Positions 24,041 through 54,765 of a stretch of DNA of 64,000 nucleotides are shown here, piece after piece (position 1 is the stretch's first letter; the number at the start of each line of letters is the position of its first letter). The notes under the pieces were generated by a model. That model was not told the DNA's origin. It ran no database searches and saw only the letters and a list, made by a program, of their open reading frames with translations. This DNA comes from Patescibacteria group bacterium. Lineage in GTDB: Bacteria; Patescibacteriota; Patescibacteriia; UBA1558; GWA2-36-10. The position numbers and the translations under genes are program-made. Location: assembly GCA_041665505.1 (NCBI GenBank), contig JBAYIR010000001.1, positions 220,392 to 284,391 of the forward strand, given 5' to 3'.

Positions 24041-24084
24041 AAAAAATCATCCAGTTGCTCGTGAATGGCTGGATGATTTTTTTA
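24041..24084. terminator. Bidirectional intrinsic terminator between convergent genes
   Basis: Perfect 10-bp stem AATCATCCAG/CTGGATGATT flanked by an A-run and a T-run. Confidence 0.65.
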
Positions 24085-24525
24085 TTCTATCTTGATTATT
24101 TCATATTTAGCTAGCTTATCACCCAATTTTATTTCTACAATATCTCCAATAGCTTTACCCAATAAAGCTAAGCCTAAGGGAGAGTGGTGAGAAATAACCC
24201 CCGCGCTAGGATTGGTTTCTGAAGAGCCTAAAATACGATATTGCCGTTTCTGGTCATCTATTTTAGTAGTTATTAAATGGCCGATTTGCACAGTTTGTTT
24301 ATTTTTATTTACTTCAATAATTTGGGCATTGGCAATTTGTTTTTCAATATTTAATATTTTTTGATTTACCCCACGCAGGCTGCCTTTGGCCATTTGGTAA
24401 GCGGCATTTTCAGAAAAATCACCCATCAAAGCCAATCTTTTTACTTCGGCAATCAACTTAGGCTGAACATCTTTTTTTAATCTATCTAAATTTTTTTCTA
24501 GCTCAGCCAATTTATCCTCCGTCAT
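24082..24525 (-). CDS. greA: Transcription elongation factor GreA
   Basis: GreA N-terminal coiled coil (MTEDKLAELEKNLDRLK) and C-terminal FKBP-like domain. The ORF track extends 21 codons further to 24588, but the family N-terminus supports the internal Met. Confidence 0.8.
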   Translation of the reverse strand: MTEDKLAELEKNLDRLKKDVQPKLIAEVKRLALMGDFSENAAYQMAKGSLRGVNQKILNIEKQIANAQIIEVNKNKQTVQIGHLITTKIDDQKRQYRILGSSETNPSAGVISHHSPLGLALLGKAIGDIVEIKLGDKLAKYEIIKIE

Positions 24526-24669
24526 AAAAGGATCAGATTTTATATTTGTGTATTGTCCACCTTTTCTAATTGGTACTCTCATAGTCACTAGTATACTTTA
24601 TATATTATTTTTTTGCTAATTATTTTTTATAAAAAATAATAACTGTGGATAAGTATGCTTATAAAAGTA

Positions 24670-24697
24670 TTGACATAGTTTGTAGATGTGATATTAT
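24670..24697 (+). promoter_or_regulatory. Sigma-70-type promoter (TTGACA-16-TATTAT)
   Basis: Consensus -35 and -10 boxes precede the GC-rich, ORF-free stretch. Confidence 0.5.
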
Positions 24698-24704
24698 TTA
24701 TTTA

Positions 24705-24925
24705 CAAGATCGACAGTAGAGAGAGGTTAAGGGGAGGGAAGGATACAAGTTTCTGGATGAAGTTTCTGCGGCTTAGCACTAGGCAATAGAAACTTCATCC
24801 ACAATCATATCCCATCCCAATCACAAAAAAAATCACAACCCCTATCACAATCACAACCTATCACTCTCAACACCAACCCCTGTCGGTCTTGAATCATGTC
24901 CAAAAAATTTAGGGACATTTTTTGT
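24705..24925 (+). ncRNA. Candidate structured sRNA of unknown class
   Basis: No ORF on either strand, and GC-rich relative to the flanks. A 13-bp perfect internal hairpin (24755-24767 with 24788-24800) is nested in an outer helix (24708-24716 with 24880-24888). A CA-rich tract carries repeated AUCACA motifs. The 3' hairpin at 24895-24918 is followed by T6. Confidence 0.4.
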
Positions 24926-24994
24926 TTGACTTAAATTGTTTTAAATAAATAAAAAAACCTCTTTAAAAAGGTATTTTTTGTTTAATAATGTTTA

Positions 24995-25507
24995 TTATTT
25001 TGGTACACTCACACAAGAAAGAGAGGTATAACCCTCACCATCACATTCATCTATACGAGGCTGGGTCTCTAAATTAAACTGTAAAAGATAATAATTTTTA
25101 GGAGAACCAATAATCTTTTGGTACAAATATAAATAAATAACTTGATTTGGTTCATTTTGATTAACTACAGCATTAATTGGATCGCGTGGCATAGCATCTA
25201 AACCAGGTAGCCATTGATTATCTATAGGGTGGTTATAATCAGCACTGATACAGCCACTTATACTTAGTAGACCAGAACATCTGCCATCTTCGGCAGGATA
25301 ATCATCGCCTGTAGTATAATTATAAATTTCCAAAGCTTTACGAATTTGAGTAATATCGCTTAGTCTTCTAGCATCTCTAGCCTTAGCTTTAAAATGGTTT
25401 AAATTAACTACTGCCGCAGTAGAAATAATACCAATAATAGCAATTACTACCAATAATTCCACTAAAGTAAAACCTAGTTTTTGTCTTTTAAAATGGTATA
25501 AAAGCAT
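24995..25507 (-). CDS. Type IV pilin/pseudopilin (prepilin with N-terminal methylation motif)
   Basis: KLGFTLVELLVVIAIIGIIS class III signal and hydrophobic helix. C-terminal Cys pair. Confidence 0.8.
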   Translation of the reverse strand: MLLYHFKRQKLGFTLVELLVVIAIIGIISTAAVVNLNHFKAKARDARRLSDITQIRKALEIYNYTTGDDYPAEDGRCSGLLSISGCISADYNHPIDNQWLPGLDAMPRDPINAVVNQNEPNQVIYLYLYQKIIGSPKNYYLLQFNLETQPRIDECDGEGYTSLSCVSVPK

Positions 25508-25632
25508 AACTATATAAGTATAGCATAAATTTGCTTTTTATTAATAGACTTTGTTATGCTTGAAATTATAAAATAGAGAAAGAGGAGACGCCCTAAGACG
25601 CCTCCTCTTACATATAGCTCAGGCTATTGATG

Positions 25633-25845
25633 CTAAATAGCCTTGAAGTTGCCCCAACCATTCCAAAGAGGCTGACCATGACGATCCCGCTGAGAGTCTA
25701 CCTGTATGAAAACGTCTTGGATGCTAGTCAAACCCCATCCAGCCAGAATTTCACGAGGTGGGTCTTTGCGGATGCCAGTGATAATATGAATCTTGCCACT
25801 ACCAATGGCTTTGACTTTCTGACCCTTTTTGAATTCACAAGGCAT
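25633..25845 (-). CDS. Small hypothetical protein (70 aa)
   Basis: Perfect SD AAGGAGG 7 nt upstream of the ATG. Lies in the GC-rich island. Confidence 0.5.
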   Translation of the reverse strand: MPCEFKKGQKVKAIGSGKIHIITGIRKDPPREILAGWGLTSIQDVFIQVDSQRDRHGQPLWNGWGNFKAI

Positions 25846-26152: not shown

Positions 26153-26833
26153 TCAGACGTCCGCTATGATGCGGTCGCCGTATTCACGACGGAAGGAGTT
26201 GATTTGCAGAAGCAGAGCCTCCAAGAGATGTTCTCCAACATAGATTCGAGTTGGAGACTGCCAGTGTGAGGACTGCTCCATGAGCTCCAAGAGGTATCTG
26301 GCCAAAGGCACATATTCGCGAATGGTTTCGTTTATTTGCTTGATTTGAAACTCTGGGTCAGCCTTGAATCCCAGAGTGCGAAGATTGGCTACCCGATCAG
26401 CTAGTTTGAGAATAATTACCTCAATACTGCCAGCTTCTCGCATTTGACGGATATAAGAAAGCTTATCCCGCTTATAATCTTCGCCTTTACTCAAAAGTTC
26501 AACCCAATAGCGGACTGTGGAGCCAAAAAGCCTCTCAATCTTGTCCAAGCTGAGTTTGTCAGCCTCTACAGCATCATGAAGCCAAGTCACAACATTCATC
26601 TGCCAGTCGTCTTTGATACCCAGTTCGCAGCTGACTAAATCAGCTACATCACGCAGGTGTTTGAAGTAGTAGGTGACACCATCACCACGATACTCACCAC
26701 GGTGAGCCCATTTCCCCAGACGGTAGGCGCAGACCATCAAGCGTGCTTCTTCAGGGTCATTGATGTAACCCTGAAAACGAACCAAATAGCGTTCGTAGCC
26801 GCGCATTTCCTCAGGTTTTTTTCTGACTTTCAT
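26153..26833 (-). CDS. HD-domain (p)ppGpp hydrolase, SpoT/Mesh1-type small alarmone hydrolase
   Basis: LHDAVED and KLADRVANLRTL match the RelA/SpoT HD hydrolase motifs. Strong SD AAGGGGGT before the internal Met (MKVRKK), so the start was trimmed from the ORF-track coordinate 26869. Distinctly higher GC than the genome. Confidence 0.7.
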   Translation of the reverse strand: MKVRKKPEEMRGYERYLVRFQGYINDPEEARLMVCAYRLGKWAHRGEYRGDGVTYYFKHLRDVADLVSCELGIKDDWQMNVVTWLHDAVEADKLSLDKIERLFGSTVRYWVELLSKGEDYKRDKLSYIRQMREAGSIEVIILKLADRVANLRTLGFKADPEFQIKQINETIREYVPLARYLLELMEQSSHWQSPTRIYVGEHLLEALLLQINSFRREYGDRIIADV

Positions 26834-26947
26834 GTTCGTTACCCCCTTGTTGACGTGAATTGTAAACAACCAAAGTTAATGTCAATAGTTATACTATAGT
26901 CCAAAATTAATGTCAAACATATATTTGTTGATAAATTAGCTAAAATA

Positions 26948-26977
26948 TTGACATAATATCTTTTTTTGTTCTATTAT
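26948..26977 (+). promoter_or_regulatory. Sigma-70 promoter (TTGACA-18-TATTAT)
   Basis: Consensus boxes upstream of an ORF-free GC-rich unit. Confidence 0.55.
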
Positions 26978-26983
26978 TTAAGG

Positions 26984-27346
26984 GTATCTAGAAGTTCCAT
27001 TTTCAAAATCCATCGTGGTTGTAGAAGTCCTAGGAGGGGAAGAAAGAAGCGACTCAATTAGGGAAGATGACCATGATGGTAGACCATCAAACTACGAAGT
27101 TAAGTAGAGGCGCCTGAACGTCTGCCAAACGACGGCCCTCTCCAGCCAATTAACTTCCTGCTTTGATGGTCATCCTTGGATGACTGCTGCTGTGAGCATC
27201 ACGTGTGAGTATCACGCCGAGCTCTCGCCTTCGGCATAGGTGGTGTTTTGCTCAACCCGAGCTTAAGTTCTAAGTCCTCAGCCGCTTGTAGCAGCAGCAT
27301 CCATGGATGAGCCCCCGGTCCGTACTGGGGGCTCGCTTTCTTTTTT
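26984..27346 (+). ncRNA. Candidate structured ncRNA A (about 360 nt), class unknown
   Basis: No ORF of 60 aa or more on either strand despite high GC. Long-range complementarities include CCTTGGATGACTGCTGCTG with CAGCAGCATCCATGG, and GATGACCAT with ATGGTCATC. There is a UUCG-type tetraloop (GCCTTCGGC). It ends in a strong terminator: a 10-bp GC stem at 27309-27334 followed by TTTCTTTTTT. Confidence 0.5.
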
Positions 27347-27359
27347 AAAATTTATACTA

Positions 27360-27388
27360 TTGACATTAACTATAAAATAAGCTATAAT
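27360..27388 (+). promoter_or_regulatory. Sigma-70 promoter (TTGACA-17-TATAAT, perfect consensus)
   Basis: Located immediately after the terminator of unit A. Confidence 0.6.
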
Positions 27389-27394
27389 ATATAA

Positions 27395-27647
27395 TCCTTT
27401 CGTTTTTTGTAGCCATGAGCTAATAAGCTAATGGGTCGCCGGTAGGTAACTCCAGGTCGTTGTAAGGGCACCCTCCTTCAATGACTGCCACCACGCCTGT
27501 CGGCGACCCAGTTAATAGTTGGACCTTGGGCTGGGAAGCATATTCCCCAGCACCACTAGCCGAGCTGAGCTGAGCGGAAAACTCAGTCCAAGGTCCACCA
27601 CCTTTTGCCCTGCCAGAAGATCACTTCGGCAGGGTCTTCAATTTGTC
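27395..27647 (+). ncRNA. Candidate structured RNA B (about 250 nt); possibly a cis-regulatory leader of alaS or an independent sRNA
   Basis: 9-bp helices GGGTCGCCG/CGGCGACCC and GGACCTTGG/CCAAGGTCC, plus internal hairpins (CTGGGAA-gcata-TTCCCAG and CTGAG-cggaaaa-CTCAG). Ends in the terminator-like hairpin CCCTGCC...GGCAGGG followed by a U-rich tail. About 85 nt upstream of alaS. Confidence 0.45.
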
Positions 27648-54480: not shown

Positions 54481-54509
54481 TTGACAAATACATAAACATA
54501 TGCTATTAT
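54481..54509 (+). promoter_or_regulatory. Sigma-70 promoter (TTGACA-17-TATTAT)
   Basis: Consensus boxes precede an ORF-free GC-rich segment. Confidence 0.5.
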
Positions 54510-54515
54510 TCTTTT

Positions 54516-54740
54516 TGTGCTGAAAAAAATCAGCCTGTACAGTTTGAAAAGTTGGCCTCTGGTTTAGACGTGTATTTAACGGGAGCGCATAACCACATCT
54601 GTGGATCTTGCGTTACTGTTACGCGCTAAATCGGCAAAGCCACTTTCAAAGCTCCCTCCACGGGGAGCATTCATCCTGGCCCACGGGCTGGGGTGAAAGA
54701 GGGGGTCCCAGGCCCAGTCGGGACCCTCTTTTCTTTTTGT
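54516..54740 (+). ncRNA. Candidate structured sRNA (about 225 nt), class unknown
   Basis: GC-rich with no ORF. Nested helices GGGAGC...GCTCCC and AGCGCATAAC...GTTACGCGCT. Strong terminator at 54699-54729 (GGGTCCC/GGGACCC) followed by TTTTCTTTTT. No + strand gene lies downstream. Confidence 0.45.
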
Positions 54741-54765
54741 TTATAAAATCTAAATACCTTTTAAA

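Follow-up and report, generated by a model that had tools for sequence, protein, structure and literature searches.

Between greA (24082–24582) and a pilin-like gene (24995–25507), both on the − strand of a 64,000-nt stretch of Patescibacteria group bacterium DNA (the whole of which is called the window hereafter), lies a gap of 406 nt, and the question raised by positions 24670–24925 in this gap is whether they hold an RNA gene of their own and, if so, how such an RNA would act. The original prediction, made from the sequence, had proposed an open reading frame (ORF)-free, GC-rich small RNA (sRNA) candidate with nested helices and a tract of repeated AUCACA motifs. Our analysis indicates that the locus is very probably a stand-alone small non-coding RNA gene of ~220 nt on the + strand (~24704–24924), oriented divergently from greA and convergently with the pilin-like gene. 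As far as sequence can tell, the proposal of an independently transcribed, ORF-free sRNA was thus upheld by a + strand promoter and terminator, a recurrent rod-like fold, G.U pairs, conservation and the breakage of ORFs in relatives, and the locus combines the features by which sRNA genes are generally recognized, namely, its own promoter, a Rho-independent terminator, no conserved ORF and conservation above the neutral rate. The GC richness turned out to be mild, the value being 0.40–0.41 at the locus against a background of ~0.30, and the GC skew flips sharply within the locus, from +0.54 to −0.56.

Transcription signals, fold and conservation

Identical copies of the RNA are present on four other public contigs, and one further copy is 98.5% identical, with differences only 5′ of the −35 hexamer and in the spacer. 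Four further distinct variants were obtained from a larger collection by a GreA protein search, all of them with the RNA lying between the pilin-like gene and greA as in the window: L124 (also L125 and L126), L131 (also L132), L133 and L134, in which GreA is 86%, 91%, 90% and 94% identical to that of the window, respectively. The comparisons described below are those of five variants, i.e., the window, L124, L131, L133 and L134.

The promoter-like TTGACA-16-TATTAT that the original prediction had placed ahead of the outer helix was located at that very place, with a match to the promoter consensus at 11 of 12 positions and a TG one base 5′ of the −10 hexamer; the features of the locus are listed in Table 1. 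Sites scoring at least 11/12 number just eight in the window, both strands included. The −35 and −10 hexamers are identical in all five variants, the sole change being that of one spacer base in L133 and L006, and transcription is predicted to start at about A24704. At the other end, the expected terminator was found as AUGUCC-N11-GGACAU followed by U6, of which the fourth stem pair is U-A in the window, C-G in L133 and U.G in L124, L131 and L134, the U.G pair being impossible on the − strand.

Table 1. Positions of the features of the RNA locus and its immediate surroundings in the window.
Feature	Position	Strand	Description
Sigma-70-type promoter	24670–24697	+	TTGACA (24670–24675), 16-nt spacer, extended −10 TGaTATTAT (hexamer TATTAT, 24692–24697)
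P1, 5′ strand	24705–24716	+	CAAGAUCGACAG; pairs with 24880–24891 (minimum-free-energy and centroid folds)
Purine-only 5′ arm	24719–24745	+	GAGAGAGGUUAAGGGGAGGGAAGGAUA; pairs with C-runs of the 3′ arm to give P2, P2b, P3, P4 and P5
Apical hairpin	24754–24801	+	15-bp helix (13 bp + 2), 2 × 2 internal loop, 5-bp helix, 4-nt loop
G-free stretch	24790–24881	+	92 nt; 3′ strand of the apical helix and the entire 3′ arm
C-runs of the 3′ arm	24808–24868	+	UAUCC (24808–24812), UCCC (24815–24818), CCCCU (24839–24843), AACCU (24855–24859), CUCUC (24864–24868)
Bulges of the 3′ arm	24819–24838, 24844–24854, 24860–24863	+	B1 (20 nt), B2 (11 nt), B3 (4 nt)
AUCAC motifs (n = 5)	24820–24864	+	Starts at 24820, 24832, 24844, 24850 and 24860; the first four are AUCACAA
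C-rich internal loop	24869–24879	+	11 nt, AACACCAACCC, opposite UA
P1, 3′ strand	24880–24891	+	CUGUCGGUCUUG
Intrinsic terminator	24896–24924	+	6-bp stem AUGUCC/GGACAU, 11-nt loop, then U6
37-aa ORF	24805–24918	−	MSLNFLDMIQDRQGLVLRVIGCDCDRGCDFFCDWDGI; called by gene callers on identical contigs; rejected as a gene
Terminator of the pilin-like gene	~24951–24980	−	Short A/T-flanked hairpin (ACCUCUUUAAAAAGGU) between the sRNA terminator and the pilin-like gene

The + strand RNA (24700–24925) was predicted to fold with −71.1 kcal/mol, compared with −41.9 ± 4.4 kcal/mol for shuffled sequences (z = −6.7, with none of 200 shuffles as good), and the fold of the − strand was less exceptional (z = −4.3). 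The predicted structure is a single rod-like imperfect hairpin of 188 nt (24705–24891), in which the 12-bp helix P1 is followed by five G:C-rich helices of 4–5 bp (P2, P2b, P3, P4 and P5), a 9 × 7 internal loop and the apical hairpin. Both nested helices of the original prediction were recovered in this rod: the outer helix (GATCGACAG / CTGTCGGTC) is real, includes one G.U pair and extends to 12 bp, and the strands of the inner 13-bp hairpin (GGATGAAGTTTCT / AGAAACTTCATCC) are perfect reverse complements that lie inside the 15 + 5-bp apical hairpin. The G-free stretch that includes the 3′ arm is the longest such run in the window, and the C-runs of this arm are all paired with the purine-only 5′ arm. 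Because the purine-only arm clamps these C-runs, the AUCA(C) motifs protrude as bulges from a single side, and the unpaired residues are found nearly all on the 3′ side, in the AUCA(C) bulges and the C-rich loop. The tract that had been described as single-stranded and C/A-rich is therefore present, but the description holds only for the AUCA(C) segments and the C-rich loop, as the C-runs between them are paired.

For the same genome pairs, substitutions relative to the window at aligned positions amounted to 1.8–3.4% in the RNA and 21–24% at the third codon positions of greA, the RNA being 7–10 times better conserved than the latter. The RNA is 96–97% identical, compared with 70% for the pilin-like gene, and the alignment of the window with L124 extends over the RNA but not into the spacer 3′ of its terminator. 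Judged from these alignments, the RNA is under purifying selection. Each of the five variants folds independently into the same rod, and standard pairs account for 98.4% of the pair cells in alignment A5, compared with 35–47% when the 3′ partners were slid. P1 is invariant and 100% paired in all variants and includes a U.G pair that could not form on the − strand. Compensatory changes were identified at two base pairs, one in P5 (pair 45–116, from G-C to A-U between window/L133 and L124/L131) and one in the terminator stem; in addition, the G.U pairs that can form only on the + strand comprise three that are invariant, one that arose by a change from A-U and the U.G pair of the terminator. The apical hairpin of L131, L133 and L134 carries substitutions only in its loop or internal loop, never in a helix, and the indels among the variants (12, 6, 2 and 1 nt) are all in B1 or B2. 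Variable columns make up 8 of 130 paired and 31 of 99 unpaired columns, a contrast that is overstated by its nominal p-value because the indel columns among the 31 are not independent events. Thus, the conservation in relatives that had been proposed as a check was found for the helices, which are kept in all variants, and only in part for the repeat tract. A G-quadruplex in the 5′ arm was also considered and set aside, since L124 and L131 no longer have the fourth G-run.

With respect to the distribution of the RNA, a greA-anchored set of 117 loci was compiled, consisting of 37 GTDB species genomes and 80 JGI metagenome contigs, in which GreA is at most 58% identical over the full length and up to 69% on partial matches; the nearest named kin by GreA among the GTDB species representatives are metagenome-assembled genomes (MAGs) of Buchananbacteria, Falkowbacteria and Komeilibacteria, at 58% identity or less. 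In these 117 loci, the RNA was not found by nhmmer or blastn, and the synteny upstream of greA is not conserved. It was likewise absent near greA in L127, L128 and L130, in which GreA is 70%, 66% and 67% identical, respectively. A covariance model built from four variants (R1) detected no further copy in the window or in the surroundings of greA in 121 loci, and neither an exact-pattern scan of viral contigs nor a blastn search of phage genomes gave a match to the RNA. Several candidates were rejected in the course of these searches. The weak nhmmer match in L127 (E = 0.36) was unrelated on inspection. A scan for the closing helix (AAGATC...GGTCT plus inner complementarity) returned an sRNA-like unit in L128, with about four matches expected by chance, and its homology found no support from nhmmer or from the covariance model. 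In L130, an sRNA-like unit occupies the syntenic place upstream of greA, but its resemblance is to the promoter and 5′ end of another unit of the window (unit A, described below), not to this RNA. Long G-free or C-free runs in the anchored loci came from unrelated leaders or from coding sequence (the C-terminal parts of ABC-F in L033 and L040).

The Rfam scan that had been suggested as a check gave no family match to the locus. At gathering scores, the whole window yielded only a tRNA-Gln elsewhere, and at E ≤ 10, the 601 nt of 24500–25100 yielded only chance matches to miRNA or terminator models, with no 6S RNA among them; a search of the literature on 6S RNA or structured RNAs in Patescibacteria returned nothing relevant. 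Taken together, the RNA gene appears to represent a previously undescribed orphan sRNA family that, among the loci examined, is restricted to one narrow clade.

Coding and cis-element readings of the locus

The sole sizeable ORF of the locus, of 37 aa, is annotated by gene callers on the identical contigs and is co-oriented with both neighbours, the pilin-like gene and greA, from which it could be argued that the locus is a − strand gene for a cysteine-rich protein, with CD repeats arising from TGTGAT and the RNA fold being incidental. We regard this reading as barely conceivable. The frame is broken in all four relatives by 1- or 2-nt indels (L124, L131, L133 and L134), in which the ORF is not called, and in L124, CCC TAA comes after its ATG. 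The ORF lacks its own promoter and ribosome-binding site, no Shine-Dalgarno (SD) motif precedes it and the terminator of the pilin-like gene lies upstream of it on the − strand. Moreover, few stop codons are to be expected in this region because the strand is G/T-rich, stop codons being scarce by composition alone. As the sole sizeable ORF is frameshifted by indels, the locus is considered to be non-coding. Two smaller ORFs were also rejected: a 33-aa ORF on the + strand, which starts between the −35 and −10 hexamers and in which four of four substitutions in frame change the amino acid, and a 10-aa micro-ORF within the apical hairpin, which was discarded along with the other coding readings (frameshifts or substitutions that all change amino acids).

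It may also be supposed that the locus has no dedicated RNA function and is a cis element or a remnant, such as a 3′ untranslated region (UTR) of the pilin-like gene, an upstream regulatory region of greA, a set of protein-bound DNA repeats or a decaying fragment of a mobile element that folds by chance. In line with this, the ATCACA direct repeats are spaced by 12, 12 and 6 bp, and their copy number shifts like that of slippage-prone DNA repeats; the neighbourhood, which contains a GC-rich HD-domain gene as well as a 70-aa ORF with an atypical SD motif, also has a mosaic appearance. Such a reading nevertheless seems improbable, as conservation is far above that of the flanking genes and lies on the helices rather than on the repeats, and as the compensatory changes, the strand-specific G.U pairs and the complete + strand promoter and terminator contradict it, together with the alignability of the RNA next to a spacer that cannot be aligned. 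The case that the original prediction had named as its refutation, a leftover 3′ UTR, fails for the pilin-like gene because this gene ends at its own − strand terminator (Table 1) and differs from the RNA in conservation as given above. The stem ends of this terminator are A...U in the window, G...C in L131 and G.U in L124, and the hairpin is considered to function on the − strand because these changes fit and because the G.U pair of L124 is possible only on that strand.

The AUCAC motifs and possible modes of action

The repeated motifs of the tract were confirmed as four ATCACAA copies within 37 nt, out of 10 copies in the entire window, and Tandem Repeats Finder (TRF) reported a 16-nt unit with two repeats at the locus. 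The number of AUCAC copies is five in the window, four in L133 and L134 and three in L124 and L131, with these three to five copies per RNA at unpaired positions. The first (CCCAAUCACA) and last (CCUAUCACUCUC) copies are invariant. The others differ in various ways: segments of 12 nt (AAAAAAAUCACA) and 6 nt (AUCACA) are absent from L124 and L131, a 2-nt deletion removes one copy in L134 and bulge B2 is partly rewritten in L133. In L131, moreover, the B2 copy is mutated to AUUAC, and a G-to-U change makes a new AUCAC in the apical loop, where one of its three copies thus sits. On this comparison, constraint lies on the helices, the bulges accommodate gains and losses of sequence and the AUCAC motif is only partly conserved.

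By analogy with known systems, our tentatively favoured reading is that the RNA is a trans-acting protein-binding decoy or scaffold. The rod would serve as a scaffold that presents, along one face, a short single-stranded motif in several copies, and the RNA may bind in trans a single-strand-specific RNA-binding protein, by titration or assembly, in the manner of a decoy sRNA; the extra AUCAC copies in some strains could be slippage expansions that the helix tolerates. The more definite suggestion of the original prediction, that the repeats mark a protein-sponge or target-mimic sRNA, was not established, since the tract is largely paired, the number of motifs is not fixed and no target RNA was found in the 64 kb. 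Several points weigh against a decoy or scaffold. The number of AUCAC motifs falls from five to three, with two of the copies of the window lying in expansions that are absent from L124 and L131, and the multiplicity may therefore reflect neutral slippage rather than selected avidity. Covariation is confined to two pairs in five close sequences, and the shuffle control for it was not significant (44/500). The RNA was found only in the clade with GreA identity of at least 86%, the structure being compared within that distance only. Finally, the commonest mode of action of stand-alone bacterial sRNAs that have their own promoter and terminator is base pairing.

Among known protein-sequestering RNAs, CsrB, RsmY and RsmZ are similar in being stand-alone genes with a strong promoter and an intrinsic terminator and in carrying a repeated short motif, unpaired within a highly structured RNA, with a copy number that varies between relatives. 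However, their motif is GGA or ANGGA and is displayed in hairpin loops, whereas here it is AUCA(C), in only three to five copies, in one-sided bulges of a single rod, and there is no Rfam match; the GGA-containing runs of this RNA are in the 5′ arm and base-paired, which does not fit the motif of a CsrA sponge. CrcZ and CrcY, the Hfq/Crc sponges of Pseudomonas with CA-rich, A-rich motifs, share with this RNA the repeated single-stranded C/A-rich motifs and a length of a few hundred nucleotides, but the AANAANAA-type motif is not conserved here, the A-run of B1 is absent from L124 and L131 and no Rfam match was obtained.

The main rival to a decoy or scaffold is a base-pairing (antisense-in-trans) sRNA, in which invariant single-stranded segments would be the seeds for mRNAs elsewhere in the genome and the rod would provide stability. 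Several unpaired segments are in fact invariant in all five variants, and the candidate seeds are the C-rich loop ACCAACCC(C), of which ACCAACCC is unchanged throughout, the AAUCACA bulge and the internal-loop strands CAAGUUU and AAUCA. Besides the general prevalence of this mode, unpaired C-rich motifs are the seeds of RsaE/RoxS-type sRNAs, which also speaks for base pairing. The present RNA resembles RsaE/RoxS (RF01820) in having an unpaired C-rich segment able to pair with G-rich sequence, namely, the invariant ACCAACCCC, and differs in that most of its C-runs are sequestered by its own purine arm, that its host is poor in SD motifs and that no Rfam match was found; it has a single unpaired C-rich segment (24869–24879), compared with the two or more of RsaE/RoxS. 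In a survey of the whole window, which covered 59 ORFs of at least 100 aa plus neighbours, an SD-like motif (GGAG, GAGG or AGGA at −20 to −4) was present upstream of only 4 of 59 genes. Because SD use is this rare, C-rich anti-SD seeds would have few targets, which disfavours them. Targets were sought in the window with duplex energies, blastn-short and the complements of seeds, and none rose above the controls: the best duplex energies of the two arms with the 59 translation-initiation regions (−18.4 and −23.1) were no better than those of shuffled arms (best means of −22.6 and −22.4), the complements of ACCAACCCCU and of AUCACAA were not enriched and the best antisense match was one of 16/17 nt inside a coding region (E = 0.14). 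Base pairing thus seems rather unlikely to be the mode of action, although it is the alternative to which we give the most weight.

A further rival is a 6S-like RNA, whose rod would mimic an open promoter, bind the RNA polymerase holoenzyme and sequester it. The locus is like 6S RNA (SsrS, RF00013) in its rod of ~190 nt and its strong housekeeping-type promoter, the 188-nt length and long-hairpin shape fitting 6S RNA and the very strong promoter fitting such a role. In addition, RF00013 was not detected in the 64-kb window or in the loci of four relatives, so the 6S role is not visibly filled there. It differs in that the 6S models of Rfam gave no match even at E ≤ 10 over the 601 nt, and no large two-sided central bubble appears in the minimum-free-energy and centroid folds of the five variants, in which hardly any residue of the 5′ strand is left unpaired; a loop open on both sides occurs only once, at ~9 × 7 nt and with internal pairs possible, and the large unpaired segments are one-sided 3′ bulges whose length ranges from 20 to 8 nt among the variants. 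6S RNA is normally conserved across whole phyla. The narrow distribution of the present RNA, which is absent near greA at GreA identities of 70% or less and was not detected by the covariance model in the greA surroundings of the 121 loci, is at odds with this. A 6S-like RNA is therefore, in our view, very unlikely.

A last analogy is with the 3′ tail of 16S rRNA. The KH domain of Era recognizes GAUCA, especially its two adenines, plus the following CCUCC (PMC10582724). The KH-bound tail (GAUCACCUCCUUA) is resembled here by repeats of AUCAC, each followed by a C/U-rich run (AUCACAACCCCU, AUCACAACCU and AUCACUCUC), and each C/U-run pairs with an SD-like purine run (GGGGA, AGGUU and GAGAG). It could be imagined that the RNA is a structural mimic of the SD : anti-SD region, in which the 3′ arm would be a series of tandem 16S-tail-like units (compare GAUCACCUCC), each unit of AUCAC and C/U-run being clamped by an SD-like purine run of the 5′ arm, and that it might act as a decoy or chaperone for a reader of the 16S tail, such as the Era KH domain, YbeY, KsgA or a tail-cleaving toxin. 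If true, such a mimic would exist in a host whose own genes hardly ever make use of SD sequences. However, the repeats have A or U in place of the conserved G of GAUCA, and none of the pyrimidine runs reads CCUCC, so the likeness is one of resemblance only, and the lack of this G from the repeats leads us to consider the idea a long shot.

Genomic neighbourhood and other RNA-like units

Several observations concern the surroundings of the locus. The pilin-like gene is so called because it carries an N-terminal methylation motif of the type IV pilin kind. In a number of genes in the window, greA and the pilin-like gene among them, the leader is AT-rich and promoter-like hexamers adjoin the start codon. 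Beyond the pilin-like gene, a 70-aa ORF (25633–25845, − strand) without a Pfam match is preceded by a perfect AAGGAGG SD motif, and its neighbour (26153–26869, − strand) is an HD_4 gene, with a RelA/SpoT-like HD domain. The GC content of these two is 0.45–0.52, against the background of 0.30, and a strong − strand terminator lies at 25609–25580, after the segment that they form; this stretch between alaS and greA may be an acquired segment.

Three further RNA-like units were noticed on the + strand of the window. Unit A (26948–27346) begins with TTGACA-18-TATTAT, continues as an ORF-free unit of ~360 nt with a GC content of ~0.5 and ends at a strong terminator (GAGCCCCCGG...CUGGGGGCUC plus a U-run); its fold has z = −6.8, it has no Rfam match and it is 94% conserved in L131 and L133. 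Unit B (27360–27645) has a 12/12 promoter (TTGACA-17-TATAAT), followed by a structured unit of ~250 nt (z = −5.9) with its own terminator, ends ~90 nt upstream of alaS (27733, + strand) and is 88% conserved in L131 and L133. It gave no T-box or other Rfam match at E ≤ 1 and may represent either a further sRNA or a leader or attenuator for alaS. Unit C (54481–54745) has an 11/12 promoter with TG, followed by ~230 nt of ORF-free, GC-rich sequence and a terminator (GAGGGGGUCCC...GGGACCCUC plus a U-run), the next gene being on the opposite strand. In all, four of the eight best promoters of the window face unannotated, ORF-free, GC-rich, highly structured RNA-like units without an Rfam match.

Further observations were made outside the window. 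The sRNA-like units near greA in L128 (9185–9365, − strand) and L130 (9600–9885, − strand) are unannotated, have a strong promoter and terminator and fold with z = −4.5 in both cases; neither has an Rfam match or detectable homology to the present RNA, and the L130 unit resembles unit A in its promoter and first ~40 nt. In L040 (2766–3001, + strand), a MAG of Uhrbacteria, a long GC-rich palindrome (CCCCTCACCCCAACCCTCCCCCGTA...GGGGGAGGGTTGGGGTGGGG) lies before greA and is followed by a 54-nt G-free, CA-rich leader that contains the tandem repeat AAUCACUCCACCACUCCAACACUA ×2 and reaches the ATG.

To our knowledge, the regulatory RNAs of Patescibacteria, or the Candidate Phyla Radiation (CPR), are essentially uncharted, and these bacteria have genomes of ~1 Mb and few known regulators. 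The locus described here provides a clean case of an apparently strongly promoted, structurally constrained sRNA under purifying selection that is not recognized by databases, and its unusual architecture, with a purine arm opposite a G-free arm, gives a concrete, testable starting point from which an RNA-binding protein might be found in a lineage that has not been cultivated. The wider set of strongly promoted, structured RNA units may be a more interesting lead than this RNA, and if the promoter pattern is general, the reduced genomes of CPR bacteria may devote a notable share of their strongest promoters to unknown RNAs.

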